IMG/VR virus record: IMGVR_UViG_3300034025_000053
Span: 1 to 64,000 of that record
Length of the DNA stretch: 64,000 nucleotides
Strand: one strand, 5' to 3'
Source: a virus
Shown: piece by piece, positions 6,379-36,000 of the stretch
Position numbering within the stretch: position 1 is the first letter of the stretch
How the letters are laid out: every line of letters begins with the position of its first letter
Notes under the pieces: model-generated
The model's database searches: none
What the model saw: the letters and a program-made list of their open reading frames with translations, nothing else
What the model was told of the DNA's origin: nothing
Translations under genes and position numbers: made by a program

Positions 6379-7095
6379 ATGAGTGAAAAATCCCCCGACT
6401 GGCGCGACAAGGCTGGCGGCTACCGCACGCGTGTCGACGCTGATGGAAAGCCGGTAGAGCGTGCGCGCGGCGGTGCCCCGAAGGCTGGTAGTCGTGCTGG
6501 ATTGTTCCAGCCACCTCGCATCGAGGTGAAAGCTGCCGCCCGCGCGCTTTACGAAGGGGTGCCGGGCGCGACGTGCGTGTCGGTCGCGAAGGAGCTGGGC
6601 GAGCCGGAAGGCACGGTTCGGCGGTGGAAGGCGGAAGAAGGTTGGAAACCGGCGAAGCGCTCGATCGCAAACCTGGGTGCGCGGGCAGGTGAACTCGCCA
6701 ATTCGTTCGCCGTGAAAATGACGGACCTGGGAAAACCAATGAGTGATGAAGTCGCCGCGGCCGAGGTCGCAAAAGAATTGTCGGAAACCTTCGCCGTCGA
6801 CGTGCGTGCGCAGCTGCTGGACCGCCACCGCAAGGAATGGGCCGGCCCGCGCAAGATCGCATACGAGGCGATGAAGGGTTCCGACCTGGACAAGGCCAAA
6901 CTGGCGAAGATCTCGGCCGAAACGCTGATGTTGATCCAGACGGGCGAGTGCCGGGCGTACGGCATGGACCAGGCCGCGCGCGGCGCCGACGAACGCCGCA
7001 CGGTGGTGGTCATCGATCGCGAGGGCGCATCCGACGTCGACCAGGATCCGCTGGCCGGCATTTCGAACGGCGTTGACGGGCCGGATTCCTTCTGA
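6379..7095 (+). CDS. putative small terminase-like HTH protein (238 aa)
   Basis: HTH-like segment CVSVAKELGEPEGTVRRWKAEEGW and the overall layout resemble TerS-type proteins. This is a motif-level guess only. Confidence 0.45.
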   Translation: MSEKSPDWRDKAGGYRTRVDADGKPVERARGGAPKAGSRAGLFQPPRIEVKAAARALYEGVPGATCVSVAKELGEPEGTVRRWKAEEGWKPAKRSIANLGARAGELANSFAVKMTDLGKPMSDEVAAAEVAKELSETFAVDVRAQLLDRHRKEWAGPRKIAYEAMKGSDLDKAKLAKISAETLMLIQTGECRAYGMDQAARGADERRTVVVIDREGASDVDQDPLAGISNGVDGPDSF

Positions 7096-8573
7096 TGGGC
7101 AAGCTACGCGTGGTCGGCCCCGACGACAGCGGCATCTTCATGCCCACCGAGATCGTCATGCGCCTGGTGGCCGAGCTGCTGCCGTATGCGCAGAACTCGC
7201 GCACCCATACCCCGGCAAGCACGGCCAGCCTGGTCAGCATGATCAAAAAATTCGGCTGGACCAACCCGGTGCTGATCGCTGATGGCGGGATCCTGGCGGG
7301 CCACGGTCGCATCATGGCCGCCGGCAAGCTGGGTCTGGTCAAGGTGCCGTGCATCGACCTGTCCCACTTGGATGCAGACGCGCGCCGCGCGCTGGTGATC
7401 GCCGACAACCGCTCGAGCGAGCTGTCCACCTGGTCGCTCGAGGAGCTGAAGGGCGAGACGGATTACCTGCGCGATGTCGGTTTCGACATGGAGGCGGACC
7501 TGGGCTTCGCCGAGGACGACCTCGCCAGCATGTTCGAGGGGATGGTCGGCGCGCCGGATACTGGCGATGGCGATCCGGACGAGGTGCCCGAGGTGCCGGT
7601 CGAGCCGGTGTCGCGGGTGGGTGACGTGTGGATCTGCGGCGCCCACCGGGTGATGTGCGGCAGCGCGCTCGAGCTGTCCCACTGGGACGCCCTGATGGGT
7701 GGCGAGCTGGCGGACGTCGTCTGGACGGATCCGCCGTACAACGTCGATATCGGCGGCAAAAACGAATCGCTCGATCGAGCCGACGGCGGCAGCCGGGCCA
7801 AGACCGGCAAACTCCAGAACGACAAGCTCGCCGCGGGCGAATTCCGCGAGTTCCTGCTCGGGATGTACCGTGCCGTTTTCGAGGTGATGAAGCCGGGCGC
7901 GCCGATCTACGTGGCGCACGCCGACAAGGAGGCGCTGGCCTTCCGCGCCGCGTTCGAGGAGGCTGAGTTCAAGTTCTCGTCCATGGTGATCTGGAAGAAG
8001 AACGTGATGGTGCTGGGCATGTCGGACTTTCAGCCCATCCACGAGCCGATCATCTACGGGTGGAAACCCGGCTCGAAGCACCGGTGGTACGGCGGCCGCA
8101 AGAACACCAGCGTCATCGACTTCGGCGAGGCCGGGCCCTTCACCCAGCTGCCCGACGGGCGCTGGCAGATCAAAATTGGCGATTCGATCATGGTGGTGTC
8201 TGGCGACGCGACCGTGCAGGAAAGCCCGGCCAGCGTGATCCACGAGGCCAAGCCGTCGAAATCGGGCCTGCACCCAACGCAGAAGCCGGTGGCTCTGGTC
8301 GAGCGCCTGCTCAAGCAGTCGGCGCGCGCCGGCGACATCGTGGTCGACGCGTTCGGCGGGTCCGGCACAACGCTGGTCGCGGCAGATCGCATGGGCATGT
8401 GCGCCAGGCTGATGGAGCTGGATCCCGCATTCGCCGACGTGATCGTGGTGCGCTGGCAGCAGCTGACCGGCCGGCGCGCGGCGCTGGCCAGCACCGGCGA
8501 GCTGTTCCCTGCAGGCGATGAGGTGCGCGCGCCGGCGCCGGACGAGCTGCCAGGCGCCGAGGGGCTGTTTTGA
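7095..8573 (+). CDS. ParB-like nuclease domain fused to a beta-class N6A/N4C DNA methyltransferase (492 aa)
   Basis: N-terminal ParB-like segment (GWTNPVLIADGGILAGHGR). DPPY motif VVWTDPPYNV comes before the SAM motif VVDAFGGSGTT, which is the beta-class order. Confidence 0.85.
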   Translation: MGKLRVVGPDDSGIFMPTEIVMRLVAELLPYAQNSRTHTPASTASLVSMIKKFGWTNPVLIADGGILAGHGRIMAAGKLGLVKVPCIDLSHLDADARRALVIADNRSSELSTWSLEELKGETDYLRDVGFDMEADLGFAEDDLASMFEGMVGAPDTGDGDPDEVPEVPVEPVSRVGDVWICGAHRVMCGSALELSHWDALMGGELADVVWTDPPYNVDIGGKNESLDRADGGSRAKTGKLQNDKLAAGEFREFLLGMYRAVFEVMKPGAPIYVAHADKEALAFRAAFEEAEFKFSSMVIWKKNVMVLGMSDFQPIHEPIIYGWKPGSKHRWYGGRKNTSVIDFGEAGPFTQLPDGRWQIKIGDSIMVVSGDATVQESPASVIHEAKPSKSGLHPTQKPVALVERLLKQSARAGDIVVDAFGGSGTTLVAADRMGMCARLMELDPAFADVIVVRWQQLTGRRAALASTGELFPAGDEVRAPAPDELPGAEGLF

Positions 8574-8803
8574 AATCCGCTCTCGATGTCCTGGGCGACC
8601 TGTCCGGCCTGAGCAAGCCGGCGCTCAACGAGATCCTTGAGCAGGTCAGGGCGAACCAGGCGCTGCTGAACGCGTGCGCCCGGCATGAATTCGAGCAGGT
8701 GCTGCCGGTGGTGCCCTTGCGCCAGAAGTATCGCTGCAAGCGGTGCGGCGGCGAGGTCGACCATCACGCCTGGTATTGGCACCAACAGGGCCGCCGGCAG
8801 TAG
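8570..8803 (+). CDS. hypothetical protein (77 aa), TTG start
   Basis: Track ORF. The only in-frame start is a TTG overlapping the upstream TGA. CxxC near the C-terminus. Confidence 0.4.
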   Translation: MKSALDVLGDLSGLSKPALNEILEQVRANQALLNACARHEFEQVLPVVPLRQKYRCKRCGGEVDHHAWYWHQQGRRQ

Positions 8804-8921
8804 TATTCGCGGCCTGGAATACCACGAAGGACATTGAAATACATCAAATTAATTACACGCGGCATCAATAATGCATTAAAATTGCTGCACGTTCTTAATT
8901 TCAACTGTCCTACGGAAACCC
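8804..8921 (+). promoter_or_regulatory. AT-rich intergenic region, probable promoter/operator for the HD-hydrolase operon
   Basis: Sharp GC drop. Hairpin GTATTC-N8-GAATAC (8803-8822). Two CATCAA(A)T(A)A motifs (8843, 8863). TAAAAT at 8877. No convincing -35 found. Confidence 0.3.
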
Positions 8922-9443
8922 ATGAACAACCAAGAAAATATCGCCTTCAGGGCGATGCTGTTCGCGCGCCGCGTGCACAGCCGCCAGCAGCGCAAATACA
9001 CCGGCAATCCATACACTGATCACCTGGCTGAAGTAGCCGGCATCGCCATGACGATGGGTTGGCATACGCCAGCCATTCACCCCGACAAGTTCATTGCCGT
9101 CTGCTGGCTGCACGACACCGTCGAGGACCAAGGCGTCACCAAGGAAGAACTGTTCGACAACTTCGGCGCCATCGTCATGGACGGGGTGATGCTGCTGTCC
9201 GATGTGGAAAGTGGCAACCGCGCCGAGCGCAAAGCTGCCGCCCGCGCCCGCCTCGCCAACGCCCCGGGCTGGGTCCAGTCCATCAAGTGCGCTGACCTGA
9301 TCAGCAATACCTCGTCGATCGTCATGCACGATCCGAAGTTTGCGGTCACCTACCTCGAAGAAAAACGCCTGCTGCTCGACGTCATGACCAAGGCCGATCC
9401 TCGCTTGCTCCAGTTGGCGCGTGCGCAGGCGGAGCGGGTATGA
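8922..9443 (+). CDS. SpoT/Mesh1-type HD-domain hydrolase (small alarmone hydrolase-like, 173 aa)
   Basis: RVHSRQQRKYTGNPYTDHLAEVA ... WLHDTVEDQGVTKEELFDNFG fits the (p)ppGpp-hydrolase HD signature (H..HD..ED). Confidence 0.8.
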   Translation: MNNQENIAFRAMLFARRVHSRQQRKYTGNPYTDHLAEVAGIAMTMGWHTPAIHPDKFIAVCWLHDTVEDQGVTKEELFDNFGAIVMDGVMLLSDVESGNRAERKAAARARLANAPGWVQSIKCADLISNTSSIVMHDPKFAVTYLEEKRLLLDVMTKADPRLLQLARAQAERV

Positions 9444-11071
9444 AGCGCGACGCCTTCACCCTACAGCTCGACTTGGGTAACGAGCTCGTCGTTGACAACT
9501 TTGCCGGCGGCGGCGGCGCCTCCGAGGGGATCGAGCAGGCGATCGGCCGCAGCATCGACATCGCGATCAACCACAACGGCGAAGCGCTGGCGATGCACGC
9601 TGTCAACCACCCTGGAACCATGCACTACGTCGAGGACGTGTTTGCCATGCACCCGGGGTTCGTCACCGGCAACCGCCCGATCGGGCTGGCGTGGTTCAGC
9701 CCCGACTGCAAGCACCACAGCAAGGCAAAGGGCGGCAAGCCGCGCGAGAAGAAGATCCGCGGACTGGCCTGGGTCACCCTGAAGTGGGCGACGTTCCAGA
9801 TGCCGCGCTGCATCGCGCTGGAGAACGTCGAAGAATTCCAGGACTGGGGGCCTCTCGACGCCGATGGCAAGCCGATCAAGGCTGAGCGCGGCCGCACCTT
9901 CCGCGCCTTCATCGACGCGCTGTCCACCGGCCTTGAGCTTGGGCATCCGGACACCGAAGAAATTTTCGAAGCACTCGGCGCCGACTTCCCGATGGAGCGG
10001 CTGCACGTAGGCTTGGGCTACAAGGTCGAATGCCGCATCCTGCGGGCCTGCGACTACGGTACGCCGACGATCCGCAAGCGCCTGTTCGTGTTCGCCCGCT
10101 GCGACGGCCGTCCGATCGTCTGGCCAAAGCCGACCCACGGCAACCCGAAGCTGAAGACGTTCGCCGCCTCGGGCCTGGCGCCGTGGCGCACGGCCGCCGA
10201 TTGCATCGACTGGTCTATCCCATGCCCTTCCATCTTCGATCGCAAGAAGCCGCTGGCCGAGAAGACGTTGGCGCGCATCGCCAAGGGGGTGATGAAGTAC
10301 ATCGTCAACAGCGATGATCCGTTCATCATCAAGTTCAGCGAAAACAGCGTTGGCCAGGGCCTGGATGAGCCGCTGCACACGGTCATGGCGGGCGCGCCGC
10401 GCTTCGGGGTGATCCAGCCGACCCTGGTGCCGTTCGTCACCGAATGCGCCAACGGGTCGACCCAGCGCAATTTCAGCGCCGAGGAGCCGCTGCGCACCCA
10501 ATGCGCCGAGGTGAAGGGTGGCCACTTCGCACTGGTTTCCGCGATGTTGGCCAAGCACTACACCGGCGTCGTTGGCACCGATGTGCGTGTCCCGTTTGGC
10601 ACCGTCACCACCGCCGACCATCATTCTGTGGTGGCGACCACGCTGGTCAAGCTGCGCAACAACCAGTTCGGCCAGGACGTGCGCGATCCGATCCCGACGC
10701 TCACCGCCGGCGGCGGCCACGTGGGCGAGGTGCGCGCCTTCCTCGTCAAGTATTACAGCGAGGGCGGCCAGGACCAGTCGCTCACCGACCCGATGCACAC
10801 CATCCCGACCAAGGATCGCATTGGCCTGGTGACGATCCATGGCCAGGACTACGCCATCATTGATATCGGGATGCGCATGCTCACGCCGCGCGAGCTGGCC
10901 CGGGCGCAAGGCTTCCCGGAAACGTACATTCTGGACCTGACGTACAACGGCAAGAAACTGTCGAAAGAGGCCCAAGTCCGGATGATTGGCAACAGCGTCT
11001 GCCCGCCCCTGGCGCGCGCGCTGATCGAAGCGAACTTTACGCATGAGCATGCGATGGCGAGGGCAGCATGA
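9440..11071 (+). CDS. DNA (cytosine-5)-methyltransferase (543 aa)
   Basis: Motif I FAGGGGASEGI. Motif IV-like FSPDCKHHS. Motif VI ALENVEEF. RELARAQGFPETY. Motif X GNSVCPP. Confidence 0.9.
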   Translation: MKRDAFTLQLDLGNELVVDNFAGGGGASEGIEQAIGRSIDIAINHNGEALAMHAVNHPGTMHYVEDVFAMHPGFVTGNRPIGLAWFSPDCKHHSKAKGGKPREKKIRGLAWVTLKWATFQMPRCIALENVEEFQDWGPLDADGKPIKAERGRTFRAFIDALSTGLELGHPDTEEIFEALGADFPMERLHVGLGYKVECRILRACDYGTPTIRKRLFVFARCDGRPIVWPKPTHGNPKLKTFAASGLAPWRTAADCIDWSIPCPSIFDRKKPLAEKTLARIAKGVMKYIVNSDDPFIIKFSENSVGQGLDEPLHTVMAGAPRFGVIQPTLVPFVTECANGSTQRNFSAEEPLRTQCAEVKGGHFALVSAMLAKHYTGVVGTDVRVPFGTVTTADHHSVVATTLVKLRNNQFGQDVRDPIPTLTAGGGHVGEVRAFLVKYYSEGGQDQSLTDPMHTIPTKDRIGLVTIHGQDYAIIDIGMRMLTPRELARAQGFPETYILDLTYNGKKLSKEAQVRMIGNSVCPPLARALIEANFTHEHAMARAA

Positions 11072-11448
11072 AGCGCCTCTACATCGCCGGGCCGATGAGC
11101 GGCCTGCCAGACCTGAATTTCCCGGCCTTCAACGCCGAAGCGGCCCGCCTGCGTGCGCTTGGCTACGATATCGTCAACCCGGCCGAGATCAACGTGGGCA
11201 CGCCGCACCCGGGCTGGGCTGCTTGCATGAAGTTGGACATCAAGCAGCTGGTCGACTGCGACGGCGTTGCGCTGCTGCCGGACTGGTTCCGCTCCAAAGG
11301 TGCATCGATCGAGCACCGCCTCGCGCACGATCTTGGCATGCCGATCTATCACGCAGCCGCGATCGTCAGCTCTGTGTTGCCGACGCCGGTCAACATGGCC
11401 GGGCCAACCGCACCGGCCGCGCGCACCACCGACTGGGCGGCCGCATGA
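11068..11448 (+). CDS. DUF4406 / nucleoside 2-deoxyribosyltransferase-like protein (126 aa)
   Basis: N-terminus MKRLYIAGPMSGLPDLNFPAFN matches the DUF4406 pattern. ATGA overlaps on both sides. Confidence 0.65.
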   Translation: MKRLYIAGPMSGLPDLNFPAFNAEAARLRALGYDIVNPAEINVGTPHPGWAACMKLDIKQLVDCDGVALLPDWFRSKGASIEHRLAHDLGMPIYHAAAIVSSVLPTPVNMAGPTAPAARTTDWAAA

Positions 11449-12563
11449 ACGCGCCTATCCGGTTTTTCGGTTCCATGGCCAGCGGCGGGAAACCCGCCAG
11501 CGTGTCCGTTCACCCTGATGTTGAGCAGCTGCTCGCCCGCAATGCCGTGGTGGCGGTTGGCGTCTCTGGTGGAAAGGATAGTCAGGCCTGTGCCCTGGCC
11601 GTGGCCAGTCACCTTGACGCCATCGGCCACACTGGCCCGCGCATTCTCGTGCACGCTGATCTCGGCAGGGTCGAGTGGAAGGACAGTCTACCGACTTGCC
11701 AGCGCCTGGCCGATCATCTCGGCTGGGAGCTGCTGGTGGTCCAGCGCAAGGCCGGCGACATGCTCTCCCGGTGGCAAGGACGCTGGAAAAATAATGTCGC
11801 GCGCTACGTCGATTTGGAATGCGTAAAATTGATCCTGCCGTGGTCGACGCCATCGATGCGGTTCTGCACGTCCGAACTCAAGGTAGCCGTGATTGAAAGC
11901 GCCTTGAAAAAGCGTTTTGCAGGGCAGGACGTCATCAACGTCACCGGTGTGCGCCGTGAGGAAAGTGCCAACCGAGCAAAGGCCCCGGTCGCGAAGTCCA
12001 ACCCAGATGTTGTCAAGGAGGGCGGGACGGGCTTCACCTGGAACGCAATCATCGACCTGTCGATCGGGCAAGTCTTCAGTACCATCGAGGCCTCTGGGCT
12101 GGCCCTTCACGAGGGTTACACAGTCCACAATATGAGCCGCATCAGCTGCGTGTTTTGCATCATGTCCAACCTGGACGACATGCAAAACTCAGCGGCCTGC
12201 GAGGACAACGTGCCGGTTTATCTCGACATGGTTGAGATCGAGGCAGTGTCGACCTTTGCGTTCCAGGGTTCGCGCTGGCTCGCCGATGTCGCCCCTCATC
12301 TTGTCGGCGAAGAACTCGGCGCCAGGGTCGCCCATGCCAAGGAAATGGCCCGGGTCCGCGTTGCGGCCGAGTCCAGGCTGCCTAAGCATCTGCTGTACAC
12401 GAAAGGCTGGCCTACGGCAGTTCCGACCATGGCCGAGGCTGAGTTGCTGGCTGATGTCCGCCGCATCGTCTCCGAGTCTGTTGGCCTGCGGGTCAACTAT
12501 CTCGATCCAGCCGACATCATCAGCCGCTACCAGCAGCTCCTGTCGCTGAAGGCGGCAGCATGA
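11445..12563 (+). CDS. PAPS-reductase-family PP-loop protein (372 aa)
   Basis: PP-loop VGVSGGKDS. Downstream motifs CTSELK and TGVRREES are typical of the PAPS reductase / DndC-like superfamily. Start is the internal ATG at 11445. Confidence 0.8.
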   Translation: MNAPIRFFGSMASGGKPASVSVHPDVEQLLARNAVVAVGVSGGKDSQACALAVASHLDAIGHTGPRILVHADLGRVEWKDSLPTCQRLADHLGWELLVVQRKAGDMLSRWQGRWKNNVARYVDLECVKLILPWSTPSMRFCTSELKVAVIESALKKRFAGQDVINVTGVRREESANRAKAPVAKSNPDVVKEGGTGFTWNAIIDLSIGQVFSTIEASGLALHEGYTVHNMSRISCVFCIMSNLDDMQNSAACEDNVPVYLDMVEIEAVSTFAFQGSRWLADVAPHLVGEELGARVAHAKEMARVRVAAESRLPKHLLYTKGWPTAVPTMAEAELLADVRRIVSESVGLRVNYLDPADIISRYQQLLSLKAAA

Positions 12564-12808
12564 AGGCCACCGCTTTCACTATCGATGGAAAGACCATCGG
12601 CTTCATCGCGCGTGAGGTAGCGCGAACGGACAACGTCGAGGAGCAGTGCAACGGCTGCTTGTTTGAGGGGAGATCGTCTGAAACCTGCTACGCCGCATGC
12701 AAGCTCGCCACCGAGGCTGGGCAGCCCGACTGCGACGATCACGGCAGCATCTACATCTACGTGGTGGCGGATCCGCGCCAGCTGGTGTTGCCGGTGGAGG
12801 GTGTATGA
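12560..12808 (+). CDS. hypothetical Cys-rich protein (82 aa)
   Basis: Track ORF with ATGA overlaps on both sides. Confidence 0.5.
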   Translation: MKATAFTIDGKTIGFIAREVARTDNVEEQCNGCLFEGRSSETCYAACKLATEAGQPDCDDHGSIYIYVVADPRQLVLPVEGV

Positions 12809-14130
12809 ACGCGCCCTACACCTTGATCCACGGCGACTGCATCACCGAGATGAGCAAGCTGCCGGCCAACAGCGTGGACGCGATCGTTACTGACCCACCG
12901 TACGGGATCCGCTTCATGGGCAAGGCCTGGGATGGCGCCGATATCGACGCGCGCGCGGCTCGGCGGCGCAGCTTCGCTTCGCAGGCTCCGGACGCTGGCC
13001 CAAATGGTGGCCACAAGTCCATCGCCGCCGAGGCCGGCAAGTATAACCTCGCGCCAGGCGCGATGCGCGCCTTCCAAGAATTTAGCGAGGAGTGGGCGCG
13101 CGAGGCGTTCCGCGTGCTCAAGCCAGGCGGGCATCTGCTGTCGTTCTCGTCGGCGCGAACCTATCACCGGATGGTGTCGGGAATCGAGGACGCCGGCTTC
13201 GAGATCCGCGACCAGCTGCTATGGCTTTACGGTTCGGGCTTCCCGAAGTCGCGCAACCTCGATGGCGTACACGAAGGCTGGGGCACGGCGCTGAAGCCCG
13301 CACACGAGCCAATTTGCATGGCGCGCAAGCCGCTAATCGGCACCGTGTCTGCCAACGTGCTGGCGCACGGCACCGGGGCTATCAACATCGATGCTTGCCG
13401 CGTGGGTGCCGAAAGCACCGCCCGCGACACGCTGAAAGAATTGTCCTCTCGCGGCGCGACCGGCGGCAGCTTCGCCAATCAGGATCACCGCTACGCCGAT
13501 CGCACATCGAAGTACCCGACAGGCAGCGACGCCGGCCGCTGGCCCGCCAACTTGATTCACGACGGCAGCGCCGCGGTTGTGGCGCTATTCCCGGCTGAAG
13601 CTGGCGCCCAGGCGCCCGTGCACCGCCGCAACGGCGACAAGTTCCGCAATTTGTTCGGCAAGTTCGAGGGCAACGTCGATGAGGCCGGCAGCACGTTTCA
13701 GGGAGACACCGGCAGCGCCGCCCGCTTCTTCTACTGCGCCAAGGCCAGCCGCACCGACCGCAATGAGGGCCTGCCGAGCGGCGATGCGCCAGCGGTCGAA
13801 ACTGACGCCACCATGCGCGACTGTGAGAACGCCGACTGGATCGCGCGCAATGGCAACCACCACCCGACCGTAAAGCCAACCGACCTGATGGCTTACCTGG
13901 TGCGCCTGGTCACGCCGCCGGGCGGTACCGTCCTCGATCCATTCATGGGCAGCGGGTCGACCGGCAAGGCCTGCATGCGCGAGGAATTCCATTTCATCGG
14001 TATCGAACTCGCCGCCAGCTATATCGAGATCAGCCAGGCGCGCATCTCGCACGAGCTGGCGCGCGTGATCGCCGCGAACACCCCGCCACCGCCATCGCCG
14101 CAAATGGACCTGTTCGGGGCAATGGCATGA
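12805..14130 (+). CDS. beta-class N6A/N4C DNA methyltransferase (441 aa)
   Basis: IHGDCITEM...AIVTDPPYG near the N-terminus and HPTVKP...LDPFMGSGSTGKA near the C-terminus. Start is the internal ATG at 12805. Confidence 0.85.
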   Translation: MNAPYTLIHGDCITEMSKLPANSVDAIVTDPPYGIRFMGKAWDGADIDARAARRRSFASQAPDAGPNGGHKSIAAEAGKYNLAPGAMRAFQEFSEEWAREAFRVLKPGGHLLSFSSARTYHRMVSGIEDAGFEIRDQLLWLYGSGFPKSRNLDGVHEGWGTALKPAHEPICMARKPLIGTVSANVLAHGTGAINIDACRVGAESTARDTLKELSSRGATGGSFANQDHRYADRTSKYPTGSDAGRWPANLIHDGSAAVVALFPAEAGAQAPVHRRNGDKFRNLFGKFEGNVDEAGSTFQGDTGSAARFFYCAKASRTDRNEGLPSGDAPAVETDATMRDCENADWIARNGNHHPTVKPTDLMAYLVRLVTPPGGTVLDPFMGSGSTGKACMREEFHFIGIELAASYIEISQARISHELARVIAANTPPPPSPQMDLFGAMA

Positions 14131-15345: not shown

Positions 15346-18300
15346 ATGGATATCCTTGCCAGCGCCCCGCGCCTCTACCTTATCAAAGCTGATGTCAAGA
15401 TCGCGCACCAGGCGGGCTACGCCCTGTGGGGTGGGCGTTGGCATAAAGTCCACCAGAACAAGCCTGCGCCCAAGGGCGCGCCGCTCAGCGCGCATCCGCA
15501 CGCGGCTGGCCAGCACCAGCCCGTCAAGCACTTCACCGACGAGCAGTGGGAAGGCCTGAAGCTGCCGGCGGAGAATTCCAACGCCGGCACGTACAACAAG
15601 CAGCTCAAGCAGCTCCAGGAGTGGTCGGACGCCGGCGACGTGACTGCGATCGTGGGCGCCGGCTACGGCGTCAACACCTATGGCAAAAAGGCCGCGGCGA
15701 TCGCCAATCACCTGCTGGGCCTGCACGGATCCCCGCACAAGGTCGCCGCCGGCCAGAAGCCTGGCTGGCATGCTGCTGTGGAGCATGCGCCGGCCGAGCC
15801 GGTTGAGGCGCCGGAGCCGGCACCAGAACCCGAGCCAACGCCAGCCGCTGAGCCGCCAGCTGCTGAGCCTGCGCCGGTACCGGCGGCGCCCGAACCGGCC
15901 ACGGTCCCGAAGTCAGTCTCATCCCCTGCAATTCAGTCGATCGCTGATCCCGATTTCCCGGCTGGCTACAAGACGTCGAAATTCTTCACCAAGGTAGCCG
16001 TCGGCCTCAAGATGATGGCGCACGAGGGCAAGCTCGGCGAACTACAGGCGGCGTTCAAACCCGACGAGGCTGCTTGGCAGGGAAAGAGCCCGAACAGCAA
16101 GACGCTGCTCGCCTACCACGGCGCGCTTGTCAGCGCGCTGAAGGGCCCGCCTGCCCCTGCGGAAGATCCTGTTGTGGTGATACAGCCAGACATAAAAGCC
16201 TGGGTGGATGACTGTGTGGCTGCCGGGGATTGGTCCAATCTGAAAGACGTCCACAAACAATTCAAAGGGTCGAGCGTCCCGGAAAACGCCGTCATCGCGG
16301 AGTACATACAGGACGCGTTGGATAAGAAAGCGGCCGCGAAGAAAAAGGCGCCCAAAGCCGCACCCGCGCAGGAACAGGCCCCGGCGCTCGTTGCGCCAGC
16401 TCCGACGTCACCAGTCGCCTCGATGCCCTGGGACAAGTTCGTCCTGCCGGCCGAGAACACGAACGCCCCGAGTCACAACAAGAAGGTCGCGCAGATCAAG
16501 GCGCTGGCCGAGGCCGGCGACGTGGCCGGACTGGAAGCACTGAAGCTGGGCACCAACACGTACGGGAAGAAGCAGGCGCTGATCGCGCAGGCGGCGATCG
16601 CCGCGCTGAAGCAGGCTGCGCCAGTGGCCGCCGTGCCCGCGCCAGCGCCAGTCGCGCCGCCGCCAGAACCGAAGGCACCTGTTGCAGAGACGGGCCCCAA
16701 GGACGGCGACACCAAGCCTGGCGCCAACGGCACCACGCTGGTCTTCAAGGACGGGCGCTGGCATGCGCAGAAGCAGGCCCCGGCAACGGCGCCGGTCGCT
16801 GTGACGTCCGACGTTTATGTCAACCAGCAAGATGGCCACAACAAGTACTGGTCGGTGTCCGTGCACGGTAACGTTATGAAAACGGTGTACGGCAAGGTCG
16901 GTTCGCAGGGGCAAACCACTGACAAAGTATTCGATTCGCCATCGGAAGCTACGCACGCATCTCTAAAATTGAAGGCGCAAAAACTTAAGAGTGGATACGC
17001 ATTCAAAGGCCACGGCCAGCATACCCATTCCAGCACCACGCCAGCGCCTGCCCCGGCGCCAGCACCAGCGCCAGCACCAGCGCCAAAGAAATCGGCAGCT
17101 GCTGCCTCGACGAGTGCCGCCTACCCGTCGATGGACACCTGGCAGCAGATCGGCCCACAGGGCGGGTCCAACCCGGGCGGCAAGTTTAAGGCGCCCGACG
17201 GCACCGAGTACTACTGCAAATTCCCTGCGGACGAGAACATCGCCAAGTCGGAGGTGCTGGCGGCGAAACTGTACGCGGCCGCGGGCCTGGCCGGCCAGGA
17301 CGCGCAGCTGATAACCAAAAACGGCAAGATTGGCATCGCCAGCAAATGGGTGGAGGTCAAGAAGGGCAAAACCGCCACGGCGCTGGCCAAGGCGCCAGAC
17401 GCTCAGGGCGGCTTCGCGGTCGATGCCTGGCTGGCAAACCATGATGTGGTCGGCCTGGGCTACGACAACCTGCAGATCGGCGCTGACGGCAAGGCCGTTC
17501 GCGTCGATGCGGGCGGGTCGCTGGAGTATCGCGCCCAGGGTGCCAAGAAGGAATTCGGCCACCACGTCGTCGAGATCGATACGCTGCGCGACGCAGCGAA
17601 GAACCCCCAAGCTGCCACCATCTTCGGGAAGATGACGCAGGCCGATATCGCCGCCTCGGTGGCGAAGGTTGCGGCCGTCAGCGATGCCGAGATCAAGAGC
17701 CTGGTCGAACAGTTCGGCCCGGGCGACGCCGCCGCGAAGAAGGCCATGGCAGCCACGCTGATCGCGCGCAAGGCTGATCTGCTGGCCAAATACCCAAAGG
17801 CCGCCATGGCAGTGGCCAAAGGCTCGTCGTGGGTTCGCCTGAAGCCTGGTGAGCGCATCGTCGAGGCCGGGGAAAAGTTCGGCGTCCACTGGGCGAAGAT
17901 CAAAGTTCCGCCAAAGGGCTTCCACTCGGACGCGATCGCCACCCCGCCCAACTTCTTCATGAACGGCAACCAGGGTCCTACCAACACCTGGAAATCGTCC
18001 GTGCAGCACGTGAACGAGGCCAACAATCTGGCTGGCCAGCGCGTGTTCGACACGGCAATCCAGCAGAAGACCTTCGCCGCGGTCCAGGGCCTCACGTTCG
18101 AGCAGATCGACAAGGCCACGGGCAACAAGACCGGCGTGAAGCTGCCGTACGCCCAGCACCCCGCCGGCGAGATCAAGGAGTACTACAAGCAGGTCGCGGC
18201 CGAGCTCGAGGCGCAGACGCAAGCCACTTACAAGACCGTCCAGAACGGATCGTTCACGCAGAGCTATTCCACTGCAGCGCTCAGCATGGCGGCCGACTTC

Positions 18301-18987
18301 ACGCCGGTCGACTATGCGGGCTTCAAGAAGCACGCCACCAAAGCTGCTGATTACCTGGTGCTGAGCAAGTCGGCCGCCGCCGGTCTGCCAGTGCCCGACA
18401 CAGGCATTTTCGAGGAACAGTGGGAAGACGTCAGCCCGAAGCTCATCGCGTACAAAAAGGCCTGTAACGATAAATTCGCGACGCTCACAGCGGCCGAGAA
18501 GACCGCCTGCAAGGCTTACACGGGCAGTTCCTACGCCAACTGGAACCAGGCACTGCGGTCGGGCGACACAAGCTCGAGCGCCTACCAGAGCGCGCAGCCG
18601 ATGGTGAAGGCCTTCGAAAAGGCTTCGATGGACATTCCCGAGGGCACGGTCCTGTGGCGCGGCATCGGCGTCGGTGAGGATACCTACAAGTCGGTGACCG
18701 GTGCGGTGATCCAGGACGGCTCCTTCCAGTCCTCGTCCTTCGGCTCAACCCCGGCATTTGGCGGGTACAAGACCTGGCTCAAGATTCACGTCGGAAAGGG
18801 CGTGAAGGGGCTACATGCAACAACATTTTCGAACTTTGGCAGTGGCGAGCGGGAAATTATCATCAAAAATAATGTAAGATACGCCGTATTGAACGTGACC
18901 CATCACGCCAATTTTGTGGACAGCAAAGGCAAAAGCCACGGCGCAAAAACGATCGTCGATCTGTTGGCGCTCCCGCACGAAGGATGA
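15346..18987 (+). CDS. multidomain (polyvalent-type) protein: helical repeats + WGR domain + protein-kinase-like domain + C3/VIP2/Alt-type ADP-ribosyltransferase (1213 aa)
   Basis: WGR about 16813-17010 (DGHNKYWSVSVHG...GKVGSQGQ). Kinase-like about 17110-17640 (GGSNPGGKF..YYCKF, ANHDVVGLGYDN, VDAGGS). ART about 18460-18900 (YTGSSYANWNQALR, LWRG, SSS 18730-38, ExE 18847-55). Confidence 0.85.
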   Translation: MDILASAPRLYLIKADVKIAHQAGYALWGGRWHKVHQNKPAPKGAPLSAHPHAAGQHQPVKHFTDEQWEGLKLPAENSNAGTYNKQLKQLQEWSDAGDVTAIVGAGYGVNTYGKKAAAIANHLLGLHGSPHKVAAGQKPGWHAAVEHAPAEPVEAPEPAPEPEPTPAAEPPAAEPAPVPAAPEPATVPKSVSSPAIQSIADPDFPAGYKTSKFFTKVAVGLKMMAHEGKLGELQAAFKPDEAAWQGKSPNSKTLLAYHGALVSALKGPPAPAEDPVVVIQPDIKAWVDDCVAAGDWSNLKDVHKQFKGSSVPENAVIAEYIQDALDKKAAAKKKAPKAAPAQEQAPALVAPAPTSPVASMPWDKFVLPAENTNAPSHNKKVAQIKALAEAGDVAGLEALKLGTNTYGKKQALIAQAAIAALKQAAPVAAVPAPAPVAPPPEPKAPVAETGPKDGDTKPGANGTTLVFKDGRWHAQKQAPATAPVAVTSDVYVNQQDGHNKYWSVSVHGNVMKTVYGKVGSQGQTTDKVFDSPSEATHASLKLKAQKLKSGYAFKGHGQHTHSSTTPAPAPAPAPAPAPAPKKSAAAASTSAAYPSMDTWQQIGPQGGSNPGGKFKAPDGTEYYCKFPADENIAKSEVLAAKLYAAAGLAGQDAQLITKNGKIGIASKWVEVKKGKTATALAKAPDAQGGFAVDAWLANHDVVGLGYDNLQIGADGKAVRVDAGGSLEYRAQGAKKEFGHHVVEIDTLRDAAKNPQAATIFGKMTQADIAASVAKVAAVSDAEIKSLVEQFGPGDAAAKKAMAATLIARKADLLAKYPKAAMAVAKGSSWVRLKPGERIVEAGEKFGVHWAKIKVPPKGFHSDAIATPPNFFMNGNQGPTNTWKSSVQHVNEANNLAGQRVFDTAIQQKTFAAVQGLTFEQIDKATGNKTGVKLPYAQHPAGEIKEYYKQVAAELEAQTQATYKTVQNGSFTQSYSTAALSMAADFTPVDYAGFKKHATKAADYLVLSKSAAAGLPVPDTGIFEEQWEDVSPKLIAYKKACNDKFATLTAAEKTACKAYTGSSYANWNQALRSGDTSSSAYQSAQPMVKAFEKASMDIPEGTVLWRGIGVGEDTYKSVTGAVIQDGSFQSSSFGSTPAFGGYKTWLKIHVGKGVKGLHATTFSNFGSGEREIIIKNNVRYAVLNVTHHANFVDSKGKSHGAKTIVDLLALPHEG

Positions 18988-19484
18988 CCATGAGCAACGA
19001 AGAAGAAAAAAACCACGAGCGCATAGCAACGGACGACTCCGGGATCCCGGGGCCGACCGCTGAGAACTCGCCGCCATGGCTGAATTCTACCGAGTCCGTC
19101 GACAACATCGTTCGCCAGTTCGCCGCCTCGGTGATCCGGCGCTACGGCACCGCCAAGCATCAGGACTTCATGAGCTGGCTCTCCAACGAGTGCTTCCGCA
19201 TGAACGAGCTGTTTATCGGCGCTGGCCTGGAGACGATGCCCTTCAGCCGCGGCCCCTGGAACACGCCTGACCAGCTCGGCCAGCACCTGGTGCTGGCGCT
19301 GCGCATCGATGGCGAATTGCGCCTGGCCGTTCGTGACGCCTTCATGATCTTCGCGGCCCGGGTCGGCGCCCTGATGCGTGAGCACCAGACCGAGGAGTCG
19401 CTGCCGGCGCTCCAGAAGGCGCTGGACTCGGCCGTGGTCGAGTTCACCCAGCAGCTGCTGGGCCTGGATGAGGTGAAGGCCTGA
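18984..19484 (+). CDS. hypothetical protein (166 aa), translationally coupled to the ART gene
   Basis: Track ORF. ATGA overlap with the upstream stop. Its own stop overlaps the next start. Confidence 0.6.
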   Translation: MTMSNEEEKNHERIATDDSGIPGPTAENSPPWLNSTESVDNIVRQFAASVIRRYGTAKHQDFMSWLSNECFRMNELFIGAGLETMPFSRGPWNTPDQLGQHLVLALRIDGELRLAVRDAFMIFAARVGALMREHQTEESLPALQKALDSAVVEFTQQLLGLDEVKA

Positions 19485-20419
19485 TGGGCGCGCGCGAGAT
19501 CCCGGATGCTGGCGATCGCATCGAGTTCCGCAGCGATCGCCACACGGACAAAGGCCCGGCCACGGGCGTGGTCCAGGGCGTCAAGATGACGGTCGACGGG
19601 CACGTCGTTACCGTGAAGTTCTCCGATGCTCAGGAAACGTTCTCGTGGGATGACATCTGCGAGGGCGCCGAGCTGGCCGACGATCTGTGGATGATCAAGG
19701 CGCATGTGAAAGGCCACGTCCGCGCCGACGGCGTCTACGTGCGGCCGTACGAGCGCGGCGACGTCAGCCTGCCGGGCGCGAAGCACCACCCCCGCAAGGG
19801 CGACACAGGAAAGCCGGTTCTCGTGCAGCTGCCGCATCACGCCTCCGCCCAGTCGACATGGACCTCGCCCGATGCCGTGGCCACGTTCCTGCCAGATGGC
19901 GATACGCCGCTGTCCCTGAACAAGGTGGCGCTGCGCAGCTGGAAGGATCACCCGACCACCGCCGAAGGCTGGGATTACGTCGACGGCGTCATGGACGACC
20001 TGGTCGAGCCGCGCTTCCACGTGCCCCCCGGGAAGAAGGCCAGCTCCGGCGTCATCATCGAGGAGCGCGACGGCCGGGTCTGGCTGACCGCCCCCACCAA
20101 CGGATTCGGCGGCTACGACGCGACCTTCCCCAAAGGCGGCGCCGAGCCGGAACTGTCGCTCCAGGCGAACGCGATCAAGGAGGCGTACGAGGAAACCGGC
20201 CTGCGCGTGCGCATCGTCGGCTTTCTGGGCGACTTCGACCGCACCACCTCGGTGGCGCGCATGTACCGCGCTGTGCGCGTGGGCGGCACGCCGGCGGACA
20301 TGGGCTGGGAGGCGCAGGCAGTTCATCTGGTGCCGAAAGGTAGTCTTTACGAACACCTGAACGGTCCCGCCGATCATCCGATAGCTGAACTGATCGGCGC
20401 CGGGCCTGCCCCCAAATAA
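19484..20419 (+). CDS. Nudix hydrolase with an unknown ~170-aa N-terminal domain (311 aa)
   Basis: Nudix box GGAEPELSLQANAIKEAYEETGL (about 20134-20205). Confidence 0.8.
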   Translation: MGAREIPDAGDRIEFRSDRHTDKGPATGVVQGVKMTVDGHVVTVKFSDAQETFSWDDICEGAELADDLWMIKAHVKGHVRADGVYVRPYERGDVSLPGAKHHPRKGDTGKPVLVQLPHHASAQSTWTSPDAVATFLPDGDTPLSLNKVALRSWKDHPTTAEGWDYVDGVMDDLVEPRFHVPPGKKASSGVIIEERDGRVWLTAPTNGFGGYDATFPKGGAEPELSLQANAIKEAYEETGLRVRIVGFLGDFDRTTSVARMYRAVRVGGTPADMGWEAQAVHLVPKGSLYEHLNGPADHPIAELIGAGPAPK

Positions 20420-20420
20420 A

Positions 20421-20451
20421 TCGACATACATCAATAATTTTGATGTATGAT
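20421..20451 (+). promoter_or_regulatory. sigma70-like promoter candidate with an embedded 9-bp inverted repeat
   Basis: TCGACA (20421-26), 19-nt spacer, TATGAT (20446-51). The inverted repeat CATACATCA/TGATGTATG (20425-20449) lies in the spacer. Confidence 0.35.
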
Positions 20452-20482
20452 GGTGTCATTCCAACGAAACAAGGATGACATC

Positions 20483-20833
20483 ATGTGGCTCTGCCTCAAT
20501 AACGCTTTTTTGTCGATCGTCGAACCAGGCAAGCCAACACTGGCCAGCGGCGATTTTCTGCTGGTCCGCGCGCGCCGGAAGGGCGATATCGAGGCCGTTT
20601 TCGCCTCCGCGAAAGTAGAACGCAAGCCTGAGCGCGACTATCTCTTCCGCGCGTTGATCCCACGCGCCGAAGTTGCTGCTGCTGTAGCCGAGCAGGTCAA
20701 GGCCATTTCTTATCCGAACTTCAAGAATTCTGTAAGAAACAACAAGCTGCACGATGCATACGCACGCATCTGGGGCATCATGGCGGCGCTGCAGCCGAAG
20801 AAGCCGTACTCCGGCCGAGACGTTCCGTACTAA
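20483..20833 (+). CDS. hypothetical protein (116 aa)
   Basis: ATG at 20483 (MWLCLNNAF...) preceded by AAGGA. Lower-GC moron-like segment. Confidence 0.5.
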   Translation: MWLCLNNAFLSIVEPGKPTLASGDFLLVRARRKGDIEAVFASAKVERKPERDYLFRALIPRAEVAAAVAEQVKAISYPNFKNSVRNNKLHDAYARIWGIMAALQPKKPYSGRDVPY

Positions 20834-20851: not shown

Positions 20852-21592
20852 ATGAAAATCGAAAACGATGTACTCGCCGTGCTCAGCCGCGCGGATGTGG
20901 GTGGCAATGCCGTGTCCCTGATCGGTCAACTGGATCGCAAACTGTACGAGCGGACTAACAAGGTGCTGGAAGCCGCTGGCGGAAAGTGGAACCGCAGCGC
21001 CAAGGCGCACCTGTTCGACGGCGACGCCTCGGCGCGCATCGAACAAATCATCCTGACTGGCGATATCGTCATCCCGAAGGATGAGTTCGAGTTCTTCCCG
21101 ACGCCACCAGCTGTTGTGGATCTCTTGCTCAAGCGGGCCGAACTCTCGCCTGGAATGCGGGTGCTGGAGCCTAGCGCAGGCCAGGGCAATATTGCCGTGC
21201 CCTGTGCCAACGCAGGCGGTTTGGTCGACTGCTATGAGCTGATGCCTCTGAATTTCGCAATCCTGTCCAAGGATGATCGCCTCGGTGTCGTTCACTACGG
21301 CGACTTTCTTCAGGCAGAGCCGCGCGCTGAATACGACCGCATCCTCATGAATCCGCCGTTCGGCCGTCAGGCCGACATCAAGCACGTGCTGCACGCCTTG
21401 AAGTTCTTGAAACCGGGCGGGCGACTGGTGTCGGTGATGGCGGCCAGCGTGGCATTCAGGGAGAATAAGCTGACGACCGATTTCCGGGCGGTGGTCTCTG
21501 CCCGGGGCGGCACGATCGATCCGCTGCCCGACGGGGCGTTCAAAACGTCCGGCACCATGGTCAGTACGGTGCTTGTGACGATACCGATGTAA
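20852..21592 (+). CDS. gamma-class N6-adenine DNA methyltransferase-like protein (246 aa)
   Basis: SAM motif VLEPSAGQGNI comes before the catalytic motif LMNPPFG. FFPTPP segment upstream. Confidence 0.75.
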   Translation: MKIENDVLAVLSRADVGGNAVSLIGQLDRKLYERTNKVLEAAGGKWNRSAKAHLFDGDASARIEQIILTGDIVIPKDEFEFFPTPPAVVDLLLKRAELSPGMRVLEPSAGQGNIAVPCANAGGLVDCYELMPLNFAILSKDDRLGVVHYGDFLQAEPRAEYDRILMNPPFGRQADIKHVLHALKFLKPGGRLVSVMAASVAFRENKLTTDFRAVVSARGGTIDPLPDGAFKTSGTMVSTVLVTIPM

Positions 21593-21597
21593 CTTAA

Positions 21598-21618
21598 GCC
21601 CCGCACGCGGGGCTTTTT
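21598..21618 (+). terminator. rho-independent terminator
   Basis: GCCCCG-CACG-CGGGGC stem-loop followed by TTTTT, immediately after the stop of the 20852 gene. Confidence 0.75.
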
Positions 21619-33069: not shown

Positions 33070-36000
33070 ATGAAATCTCCACGCCTCCTGCTGCTCAAAG
33101 CCGCCACGATCCCAGAGAACGCCCACTGGATTACGGTCCACCCGAACGGCGCAGGCAAGGGCCAGGCCGTACTGATCCAGCCCCAGCAGGACGGATCGGC
33201 GGTCGTCATCGGCGGCGCCGGCGGCAGCCTGAACCACCTGCGCTTGCGCGGCGTCAAATCCCATTCGGACTACAAGGCCGAGGCGGGCGCCAAGGCGGAC
33301 GAGCGCCGGGAAGCTAAGAAAGCCCAGACAAAGGCCGACAAGGCGTCTGGCGCCCACGAAGCGAAGAAGGAGGCCCGGGAGAGCATCCAGGCGCAGCGCA
33401 AGGCCGCTGAGCGCTCCGTAATCGATTCCGTGGCCAAGAAGGCGGGGTGGAAGGACTCCGATTTGGCGTTTCCCGAGGCCGATTACGCCCACCTGTCCGA
33501 AAAAGCGCTCGGCAAGGTCAAGGACAGCCACCACGCCCAGCTGCTTAAGCGCGCCAAGGAAGTGATCAAGCAGAGCCGGGAAAAGCTGGTCAACGATGCC
33601 TCGGCCCGCGCCGACGCCGGAATCGGCGAGTTGCCGCTGTTCTCCGATGATCCGGATCACCTGGCCGTTTCCGACCTCGACCCGGTGAAGGCGCACGGCG
33701 CCGGCCTGGGCTTCCAGGCGGACTACAAGGGCCGATCGACCGAAGCCGGGCTCAGCCAGGAGGCGCTGGCGGCCGAGGCACAGCAGGTCAAGCTGGCCGG
33801 GATGACGGAGGAGCAGCGCAAGGCAGCTTTTGCCCGCGGCGAGGCCGCCAACCTGATCAAGCAGGAACTGGCCGGCATCAAGGAGCCCGCGGCGCCCAAG
33901 GCGGACGCCTCGCTGCTGAGCGCCCAAGAGGCGCTGGAGCTGGTCAAGGAGGGCAAGAAGCTGGCCGACATCGAGCGCCAGGCCCGGGATGCGCATGCTG
34001 ACGTGGACCGCGCCGTCGGCGAGCCCAAGGCTTTCGTGCTGGAAGTGAGCGGCGACGTCGACGCGGCCGTCAAGGAAGACCTGGCGAACGATCTGCGCAC
34101 ACTGCAGACCTCGGCATTCCTGTCGGAAGTCGGCAAGATCGCCGGCGGCAACCCGACCGAGAGCCTGGGCGGGCATATCGGAGTTGGCGCCTACAACAGC
34201 ATCAACGCCCTGGCGCTGGCCGTGGGCGGGGACGCGCTGGTCGATCGCTCGGTGGTCGACGTCCTGGGCATCGCCGGCGCTGCGCAGGTGCTGGCGCGCC
34301 GCGTGCACGCTGATCTGTCGCCGGAGGAAGTCGAGCACGTCGCCAACGGGATCCAGGACTGGCACGTCAACCACTACACCGCCACCACCACCAACGCGCT
34401 GAAGAAGGCGCGCGACCTGCAGGAGGCGGCCAGCGCGATCGAGCTGTCTCCAGACGCAAAGAACGGCGCTGACCTGGCGGTTGCCCAGGAACTGAACGCC
34501 AGGCGCCGGGCCGCGATCGGCGACGCGCAGCGGATCCTCGGCCAGGCCATGGGGGAAATGGAGGCCAATGCCGCCCTGGTGGTGGCCATAAAGGGCCCGG
34601 GCACCGGCGCGTTCCAGGTCTCCCTGGGCAAGACGGCGCCCGAGCAGGCCATCCAGCAGGTGCGCGCGATCGGCCTCCAGACGGGCGACTATTCGCTCGA
34701 GAAGGTCGCCGGCGACACCTTCCTCACCGTCACGCCAGCCGGCATGGACCGTCTGGCCAAGCCGGTGAACCGGGAAGACGTGCAGCAGGTGCGCCGCAAC
34801 CTGGCGATCATCCGCGGGGATGACGACGAGGATGGCTGGCTGCCGCTGGGCGTGGCCAACCGGCCCGACCTGGCCATGGACGTCAAACCAGGGATCGCCG
34901 AGCGCCTGGCGCAGCCGATCGAGCCTGGCCCTGATCTGCAAGCATCGCTTCGCACGTATATCGGCGCTCGCACCGCTGACGGCGATGCTGTCGCAGATAT
35001 CCTCTCCGATGTGCAGTCGGCCGACTTCTTCCAGAAGATGGGCGCCGGCCGCGCCGAGGAGTACCGCCAGGCGCTGGACGCGGTGGCGCCGCTCAAGGAT
35101 GCCGACGGCGCCCAGCAGCGCGCGGAGGCCCTGGGCGAGACGTTCGAGAAATACGCGGACGACCACGTTGCCCAGCTGGGCGGCGACCGCAGCACCCTGA
35201 ACAGCCAGAAGTTCAAGGTCGACCAGAAATCCGTGGATGCGCTGCACCGGGCCCTGGCCGAGACGCCCGAGGGCACGGCCGCCTACAAGCAGATCGGCGA
35301 GCTCACGAACAAGGACCAGAGCGCGCTGCGTGACTTTTTCTACAAGAACATCGCCAAGGAATCGCCCGAAGCCGGCAAGATGCGCGCCGAGCTGGAGCAG
35401 CTGCACGCGTCCGAGCCGCAGCGGGAAACGAACGACATGTTCGGCGATGCGGTGCCCAACCCGGAATGGAAGGACTGGCGCGCGACCCGCGACAACCTTA
35501 CCGAGAAGCTGAACTCCAGCTCCCTCACCTGGGGCAAGTACTTGAAATCGATGCGCGGCAACGAGAAGGCCTACGAGGCGGTGCAGGATGCGATCAAGTC
35601 CAAGGTGGCCGCCACCTTCGTGGACGCACACAACAAGCTGAACCCGGGCGCACCGATCAAGCTGGGCAAGCGGGTCATCCGGAACAACTTGGACCACCTG
35701 GACGCGGTCGACCCGGCCGCTCGCGATTCCCGAATGGCGAAGGAAAAGGCCATGATCGATGGGCTGCGGAACCGTTCCGAGGGAAAATATGCCGCCGGCG
35801 GCGTATCCGAGAAGATCGGAGCCGCGAAAGAGCATACGGCGGCGCTGGACCACGCCCAGATGGGGTTTTTCTCGGCCGAGGAAGCGCCTGCGGCTACTTC
35901 GGCCGGCGCCACGGCCGGGCTGGGCAGCGACGAGCGCCACACCCTGGGGCATGCGGCCGAGCGCCAAATCGCCGGGATGATGGGTCACGTGGGCGCGAAC

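Follow-up and report, generated by a model that had tools for sequence, protein, structure and literature searches.

We have analysed a 64,000-nucleotide (nt) stretch of DNA, hereafter the window (positions 1 to 64,000 of IMG/VR virus record IMGVR_UViG_3300034025_000053), which comes from a metagenome-assembled phage genome of ~97.6 kb and ~63% G+C. The subject is a block of three genes that encode a kinase-like domain and an ADP-ribosyltransferase (ART) in one protein, a small partner protein and a Nudix protein. All three open reading frames (ORFs) lie on the plus strand at the positions given in the first-pass annotation of this DNA: a large ORF for a polyvalent protein of 1213 amino acids (aa) at 15346..18987, a small partner ORF of 166 aa at 18984..19484 and a Nudix ORF of 311 aa at 19484..20419. 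Coupling is tight at both junctions; however, the ATGA overlap that had been described is found only between the large and small ORFs (18984-18987), whereas the small ORF and the Nudix ORF overlap by one base in TGATG (19482-19486), with GAGGTGAAGG preceding it. The small ORF has an alternative start, ATG 18990, with GAAGGA just 5' of it; the resulting 164-aa form is the version that gene callers and databases report.

The proposed operon was recovered as a conserved unit in related phages, which form a widespread group of tailed phages of ~90 kb. The linkage scan covered 79 IMG/VR loci with the kinase module and used hidden Markov models built for the purpose; 57 loci were informative, with a single ORF for kinase and ART followed by 1.8 kb or more of sequence. 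In 56/57 of them the small protein and then the Nudix protein directly follow the kinase and ART ORF: 55 were scored as such, L047, missed through its ORF boundaries, was added, and L084 is a true exception. The large protein also occurs in eight cultured related myoviruses (Pseudomonas phages Dolphis, Jeremy and Touem01, Aeromonas phage ST4, Morganella phage Mecenats66, Escherichia phage ECML-606-1, Enterobacter phage phiT5282EW and Yersinia phage fHe-Yen8-01), and the Nudix protein occurs in the same eight. Mecenats66 has a contractile tail, and its ORF50-52 are not discussed in the paper on that phage (PMC9503643). The block lies just upstream of the terminase and portal genes, on the same strand, in Jeremy, Mecenats66, fHe-Yen8-01, a Kaistia chromosome, a Tardiphaga-linked contig and many IMG/VR loci, and the gene order ending at the terminase is kept in both bacterial assemblies. 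The Kaistia copy lies within the 5.35-Mb chromosome of Kaistia sp. 32K (AP024269; locus L004, 5242404-5261784), which holds the whole block and the terminase; either this lytic-looking group may have prophage members, or the assembly of the Kaistia chromosome may have taken in a phage.

The large protein consists of an N-terminal module, helical repeats, a WGR domain, a kinase-like domain, an alpha/beta domain and an ART domain, in that order, with Pro/Ala-rich linkers between modules (aa 148-195, 327-347, 422-449 and 562-592). It has more than 263 homologues, mostly on contigs of ~90 kb and ranging in length from 1084 to 2146 aa. These keep the N-terminal module and the core of kinase, alpha/beta domain and ART, while the inserts between the two vary: WGR, extra repeats, ART-PolyVal (PF18760) and GNAT are all found there. 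Because longer homologues insert ART-PolyVal or GNAT, the large protein is best regarded as a polyvalent and probably ejected effector.

The ART domain (aa 1045-1196; 18478..18933, +) is of the Alt/VIP2 type and carries a complete R-S-ExE signature, as had been proposed. It matches Pfam PF03496 (ADPrib_exo_Tox) with an E value of 9.8e-14 and a score of 51.6 bits against a cut-off of 23.4 bits, and sequence comparison with the PDB returned VIP2, ExoS and C2-I, in alignments where the catalytic Arg, SSS and E-x-E coincide. The motifs are YTGSSY..LR (aa 1058-1071), LWRG (aa 1103-1106, with R1105), FQSSSF (aa 1127-1132, with S1129-S1131) and GEREI (aa 1167-1171, with E1168-R-E1170); the catalytic R, S and E-x-E are nearly invariant across the family. 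Among PHROGs, the domain matches PHROG 802 ('Alt-like') over aa 1037-1117. The ExE motif in this ART clade predicts arginine as acceptor, and the enzyme is accordingly predicted, from its motifs, to be arginine directed.

The kinase-like domain (aa 595-825; 17128..17820, +) was identified from an AlphaFold model, Foldseek and invariant residues. The model of aa 585-1040 reached a mean predicted local distance difference test (pLDDT) score of 84.9 on an alignment of 75 sequences, and its best PDB match was the Helicobacter pylori Ser/Thr kinase CtkA (probability, 1.0; target TM score, 0.52-0.56), followed by N-acetylhexosamine kinase, Myt1, HPK1 and HipA. The G-rich loop (nt 17152-17187, +), the catalytic loop WLANHDVVGLGYDN (nt 17428-17469, +) and the DxG motif (nt 17500-17520, +) are all present, and G603/G607/G611, K625, E636, D700, N708 and D721-x-G723 are invariant in the 75 homologues; the spacing of the catalytic loop, D700-x7-N708, is unusual. 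The fold and the invariant K/E/D/N/D set sustain the original kinase-like assignment. Structure comparison alone gave this identity, since sequence searches of the PDB with the single sequence and with a 17-member profile returned nothing significant. The kinase region of the window copy has no Pfam match, HipA_C and HipA_2 included; among 17 diverse family members, subthreshold matches were seen to HipA_C in 9/17 and to HipA_2 in 7/17. Because these matches are weak, the name HipA/CtkA-like is used here without assigning the domain to either family.

A search with the kinase module recovered 4,552 representative clusters at 50% identity, 1,007 of them at an E value of ≤1e-30. The proteins are nearly all 650-7,000 aa long, and some contain the kinase two to five times. 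In divergent members, the kinase is joined by MuF and, at the C terminus, by an ADPrib_exo_Tox domain, and structural relatives include giant proteins of actinophages and uncultured phages that are annotated as portal, ART or Nudix proteins. A large phage effector family goes unannotated because this kinase (~4,500 clusters, nearly all in giant proteins) lacks a Pfam model of its own. As a separate observation, a subgroup of phage proteins of 1,000-1,500 aa with a different architecture carries the kinase module without ART, small-protein or Nudix neighbours (loci L051-L053, L061, L065, L068, L070-L074, L077, L080 and L085).

Between kinase and ART lies a conserved alpha/beta domain (aa ~835-1000; 17848..18345, +), modelled with pLDDT values of 85-97 and present in 117/120 homologues. 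It is as conserved as its two neighbours and has its own invariant residues (S884, N890, N893, G926, H938 and P939). A profile of aa 829-1040 found no match in the PDB or PHROGs, nor did the domain match Pfam. Kinship with the helical repeats was considered and found no support (hhalign probability, 10%).

The N-terminal module, which includes the first repeat (aa 1-140; 15346..15765, +), is found in ~108/120 homologues and has no match in Pfam or PHROG; we infer that it is a candidate virion-incorporation region. Three helical repeats had been reported in the large protein. Two are firm: the copies at aa 63-129 (15532..15732, +; family repeat profile E, 5.8e-32) and aa 357-423 (16414..16614, +; E, 3.7e-32) resemble each other with a z score of 24, a value reached in 0/500 shuffles. 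The third, at aa 196-275 (15931..16170, +), is a possible divergent copy that is moderately well supported by profile comparison (hhalign probability, 85%; E, 5.8e-6 over 31 columns), while its pairwise comparisons were not significant (z, 0.3-0.5). Family members have one to four copies.

The WGR domain (aa 489-555; 16810..17010, +) is likewise real, matching Pfam PF05406 with an E value of 1.4e-11 and a score of 44.8 bits against a gathering cut-off of 22 bits; the motif that gives the domain its name reads Y-G-K in the window copy. It had been stressed, a weight that it does not bear: WGR is present in 40/121 close homologues and in 21/61 viral kinase and ART ORFs and, on this sequence comparison, is an optional insert and not part of the family core. 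The invariant pairing is that of kinase and ART. A fixed WGR-kinase unit is ruled out by the spacing between the two, which ranges from 29 to 301 aa, and by the lack of WGR in two thirds of the members. Nor does the large protein belong to the poly(ADP-ribose) polymerases (PARPs). It shares only WGR with them; its catalytic domain is of the R-S-E and not the H-Y-E type, the kinase and another domain separate WGR from the ART, and two thirds of the homologues dispense with WGR.

The third gene encodes a true Nudix protein, as had been assigned. Its Nudix domain (aa 186-288; nt 20039-20347, +) scores 41.9 bits against a cut-off of 21.1 bits (Pfam PF00293; E, 1.3e-10), and the AlphaFold model (pLDDT, 90.7) has the Nudix fold together with two extra N-terminal domains. 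These are a small beta domain (aa 1-71; nt 19484-19696, +), which is common to a subset of the Nudix homologues, and, beyond a low-confidence linker (aa 72-99), a second domain (aa 100-180; nt 19781-20023, +); neither matched a solved structure. The Nudix box is a variant, G218-x5-L224-x7-K232-E-A-Y-E-E-T-G-L240, in which E233, E236 and E237 are invariant. The family consensus, G-x5-L-x7-K-E-A-x-E-E-x-G-L, departs from the canonical G-x5-E-x7-R-E-U-x-E-E-x-G-U in having Leu for the first E and Lys for the R throughout the family. This is the best-conserved member of the block, with at least 759 homologues and 65-70% identity over the core.

A possible link between the ART and the Nudix enzyme is sequential chemistry, as raised in the first-pass annotation: ADP-ribose placed on a host protein or nucleic acid would be trimmed to a phosphoribosyl adduct that resists macrodomains and ADP-ribosylhydrolases (ARH), or the Nudix enzyme would destroy ADP-ribose (ADPR) signals or NAD caps. 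The near-obligate linkage of ART protein and Nudix in 56/57 loci and 8/8 cultured phages and the invariant catalytic glutamates speak for it, as does the presence of RppH among the nearest structural relatives; in vitro conversion of protein ADP-ribose to phosphoribose has been reported for the Nudix enzymes RppH and NUDT16. However, the structural comparison as a whole points elsewhere. The Nudix model had 321 PDB matches at an E value of ≤1e-3 in Foldseek, and the best 50 were all Nudix-family enzymes, with no ADP-ribose pyrophosphatase (ADPRase) among these 50. The nearest solved structures were Aquifex Ap4A hydrolase, Deinococcus DR1025, Mycobacterium tuberculosis Rv2985, Ndx1, RppH, MutT1 and oomycete decapping effectors. 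A proline 15-16 positions after the Nudix box marks ADPRases; the window protein and its family have an invariant T255-S256 there and no proline. Assignment to the ADPRase subfamily was rejected on these two grounds. In addition, the unverified faecal phage scaffold MT835507 has the Nudix gene without an ART protein.

The fusion partners of the Nudix protein also argue against such a sequence of reactions. In 12/60 related viral loci (~20%), the Nudix protein is fused at its C terminus to a second kinase module that keeps its catalytic loop (L009, 4839-6419; L042, 4125-5675; L062, 9358-11061; L076, 5435-7729; L079, 1028-2482; and L010, L055, L057, L063, L075, L078 and L082), whereas no Nudix-ART fusion was found in the 60 loci. 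ADPR-directed chemistry is therefore a guess, since the Nudix enzyme is closest to diadenosine polyphosphate (ApnA) hydrolases and RppH and is sometimes fused to a kinase but, in these loci, never to an ART, and we regard the sequential scheme as quite unlikely. Because some Nudix proteins carry a kinase copy of their own, besides that of the ART protein, the kinase is physically coupled to both of the other enzymes, and these fusions hint at enzyme cooperation. It can be envisioned that kinase, ART and Nudix form a coordinated, virion-delivered set whose members act on one and the same host target or nucleotide to give it a composite modification. Examples would be an ADP-ribosyl adduct that is then trimmed by the Nudix enzyme and/or phosphorylated, or kinase-primed Nudix chemistry on an immune signal. 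Such a set would explain why kinase and ART are fused in every member, why ~20% of the loci have a second kinase on the Nudix protein and why the genes are almost never separated; even so, we hold it to be a long shot.

Evidence on where these proteins act comes from fHe-Yen8-01, whose GenBank record annotates the three homologues g129, g130 and g131 as particle associated, while several neighbouring genes are not so annotated. This fits the earlier idea of an injected effector, and we propose, with a probability of roughly 60%, that the virion incorporates the three proteins and ejects them with the DNA to act on the host. There are several points against this proposal. Virion association rests on that single GenBank annotation, for which the method is unstated, and our literature search found no publication behind it. 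The same record flags the terminase as particle associated, which leaves room for loosely bound proteins among those listed. Neither a capsid-targeting signal nor a protease site was identified in the proteins. The genes directly upstream of the block are nonstructural DNA-modification genes, and a strong intrinsic-terminator-like hairpin (21596..21615, +; 8 pairs, 6 of them G-C, then a T run) stands between a downstream methyltransferase gene and the terminase start, so that block and terminase may be transcribed separately. Scaffold MT835507 has no effector gene near its Nudix gene. Finally, the substrate of the kinase could be a small molecule, or its reaction could be a nonkinase one, as with some kinase-fold enzymes.

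Several of these points would also suit enzymes that are made after infection and act inside the cell unpackaged, like T4 ModA/ModB and T7 Gp0.7, the block then being a takeover or antidefence operon that merely lies beside the packaging genes. The upstream DNA methyltransferases and other nonstructural genes, the terminator between block and terminase, the failure to find a packaging signal and the dependence on one annotation all favour that explanation. It does not readily account for the particle-associated flags on all three fHe-Yen8-01 homologues and their absence from several neighbours, for the recurrence of the kinase-ART pairing in MuF- and portal-fused proteins, or for the size, Pro/Ala linkers and modular variation that are typical of packaged polyvalent proteins (PMC5512222). 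We consider action without packaging unlikely. A common packaging signal was also sought in an N-terminal motif apparently shared by the large protein (GYxLxxGRWHK) and the Nudix protein (KGHVRADGVYVR), but the motif was dropped as evidence for such a signal when profile comparison gave an E value of 0.21. The two sites, 15415-15447 (GYALWGGRWHK, large protein) and 19712-19744 (GHVRADGVYVR, Nudix protein), are the only ones in six frames to fit the pattern, which was itself derived from them.

The small partner protein evolves fast but has a conserved signature, PWLNS...RGPWNTP...AVRDAFM. It had been taken for an ORFan, which no longer holds: at least 26 homologues were detected, and its family is related to the positional counterparts in Jeremy, Mecenats66 and fHe-Yen8-01 (hhalign probability, 97.4%; E, 1.2e-11) at a pairwise identity of 15-23%. 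Profile-profile comparison was needed to see this relationship because tblastn of the small protein against the cultured phages gave no match. A fast-evolving small ORF translationally coupled to a large one invites comparison with toxin-immunity or exclusion modules, in which the kinase/ART protein would be the toxin and the small protein its antitoxin, serving superinfection exclusion or abortive infection on behalf of a prophage. HipA-like kinases and ARTs are classic toxin domains (the HipA link is weak here), and copies of the block are present in Kaistia and Tardiphaga bacterial genome assemblies. On the other hand, those bacterial copies are embedded in the gene order of the phages, terminase and portal included; lytic cultured myoviruses have kept the block, always beside the terminase; and the small protein is itself annotated as particle associated. 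PADLOC gave no match for it, for the large and Nudix proteins or for the product of the 128-aa ORF that follows them, so the block was rejected as a known antiphage defence system. A toxin-immunity role appears very improbable.

Returning to ejection with the DNA, we postulate that a myovirus resembling Mecenats66 and Dolphis carries the block as a module of its late region; in the scheme that follows, we infer the ejection step, the targets and substrates, and what WGR, the repeats and the small protein do. The large protein, with a Ser/Thr-type kinase and an arginine-directed ART in its core, would be an ejected polyvalent effector that phosphorylates and ADP-ribosylates host proteins after entry, with the transcription and translation machinery and nucleic-acid-bound defence proteins as the likely targets, by analogy with T4 Alt and the T7 kinase. 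In members that have it, WGR may steer the enzymes toward targets associated with nucleic acids, much as the T7 kinase is guided by its DNA-binding domain. Incorporation into the virion and passage would be the task of the N-terminal module and the helical repeats, and the small protein may accompany the effector as its partner in assembly or incorporation. Early in infection, the Nudix enzyme would hydrolyze a nucleotide-pyrophosphate substrate, for which a dinucleoside polyphosphate or alarmone, a 5' cap or triphosphate on RNA, and an ADPR-containing molecule are the candidates.

The large protein behaves like the polyvalent proteins of phages and conjugative elements (PMC5512222), giant proteins that likewise join unrelated enzymatic domains (kinase fold, ART and WGR here), vary in domain content around shared modules (as with the ART-PolyVal and GNAT of some homologues here), are coded beside packaging genes and are predicted to be delivered with the DNA. 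Unlike them, the window protein has an ART of the Alt/VIP2 R-S-E type, which is described there as distinct from typical polyvalent ARTs, and its kinase is complete, with a helical C-lobe, whereas the kinases of that survey (from Verrucomicrobia, Chlamydia and Bacteroidetes prophages) are C-terminally truncated; WGR is not mentioned in the text of the survey. ARTs and Nudix proteins coded near terminase and portal genes have been predicted to be packaged and deployed on entry, particularly in myoviruses (PMC9503650). The Nudix clades described there differ from ours, being T4 NudE-like and NadM-like, WGR goes unmentioned, and in the passages recovered by term search a kinase-ART core with small-protein and Nudix partners was not found.

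T4 Alt, a head-packaged and injected arginine ADP-ribosyltransferase, is a close parallel for the ART: both have an R-S-ExE ART at the C terminus of a larger protein, and the window protein, which matches PHROG 802 ('Alt-like'), likewise stands in a myovirus context and is predicted to be delivered with the DNA. Unlike the window protein, Alt has no kinase, WGR, repeats or dedicated Nudix and small-protein partners, and the similarity is confined to the ART domain. For the kinase, CtkA and HipA are the best structural matches, with weak HipA_C/HipA_2 signals and conserved K, E, D, N and D; to judge by paper titles, CtkA is likewise discussed together with integrating conjugative elements and type IV secretion systems of H. 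pylori. However, identity is only 14-16%, and the window kinase is embedded in a giant phage protein whereas CtkA and HipA are stand-alone toxins or effectors. The T7 kinase Gp0.7 has a DNA-binding domain that directs phosphorylation to nucleic-acid-binding host proteins and disarms defences (PMC13645617). As a phage kinase with a nucleic-acid-binding domain, it offers a functional analogy to WGR plus kinase, for which we claim no homology; unlike the proteins proposed here, it is expressed early, is not packaged and has no ART or Nudix partner.

The first-pass annotation could match this architecture to no described system. The class is in fact known, both as polyvalent proteins that are probably ejected effectors (PMC5512222) and as head-packaged ARTs and Nudix enzymes (PMC9503650); the exact combination was not found in the surveys and has gone unstudied. 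Term searches of the text of these two surveys, together with the wider literature search, did not find an invariant core in which a complete HipA/CtkA-like kinase is fused to an Alt/VIP2 R-S-E ART, nor did they find the optional WGR, the small-protein and ApnA/RppH-like Nudix partners or the Nudix-kinase fusions. The literature search found no paper linking HipA-like kinases with phage virion ARTs, and an injected three-enzyme pathway has not been described so far. If ejection takes place, the cell would receive a kinase, an ADP-ribosyltransferase for arginine and a Nudix enzyme before any phage gene is expressed, as a preformed kit for host takeover or for disabling immunity. The near-obligate linkage of ART, small protein and Nudix and the Nudix-kinase fusions provide testable hypotheses about enzyme cooperation, and the system is readily testable because cultured members exist on tractable hosts: Dolphis and Jeremy on Pseudomonas putida, ECML-606-1 on Escherichia coli, and fHe-Yen8-01 on Yersinia.

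Upstream of the block are two N6/N4 DNA methylases, one C5 methylase and a PAPS-reductase-like gene (7095-14127, +), as well as a gene for a helix-turn-helix-like protein; the run of DNA-modification genes suggests heavy self-protection against restriction. The block had been placed in an antidefence island, a description that fits in part only: methyltransferases and the PAPS-reductase-like gene lie on its upstream side, and the terminase and portal genes abut it. Downstream, the order is a 128-aa ORF, a methyltransferase gene (20852-21589), the terminator described above, a gpA-type terminase gene and a portal gene (27046-28776), the last two on the same strand.

A perfect AT-rich hairpin with arms of 10+10 bp and a 5-nt loop lies between the Nudix gene and the next ORF (20425..20449). 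Its sequence, CATACATCAA-TAATT-TTGATGTATG, is unique in the window, stands in a genome of 63% G+C and overlaps the start codon of the 128-aa ORF (20447..20833, +). By tblastn, this ORF is kept 3' of the Nudix gene at five reference loci (Jeremy, fHe-Yen8-01, Mecenats66, Kaistia and the Tardiphaga-linked contig) with 30-64% identity, which makes it a possible fourth member; Pfam, PHROG and PADLOC gave no match for it, and its fHe-Yen8-01 counterpart does not carry the particle-associated flag. Farther away, downstream of the portal gene, a second giant ORF (33070-37605, +; 1512 aa) encodes a protein with a C-terminal SNF2/DEAD helicase and a full-length match to PHROG_62 'DNA helicase' (E, 1e-206), which may be a packaged antirestriction protein like DarB of phage P1.

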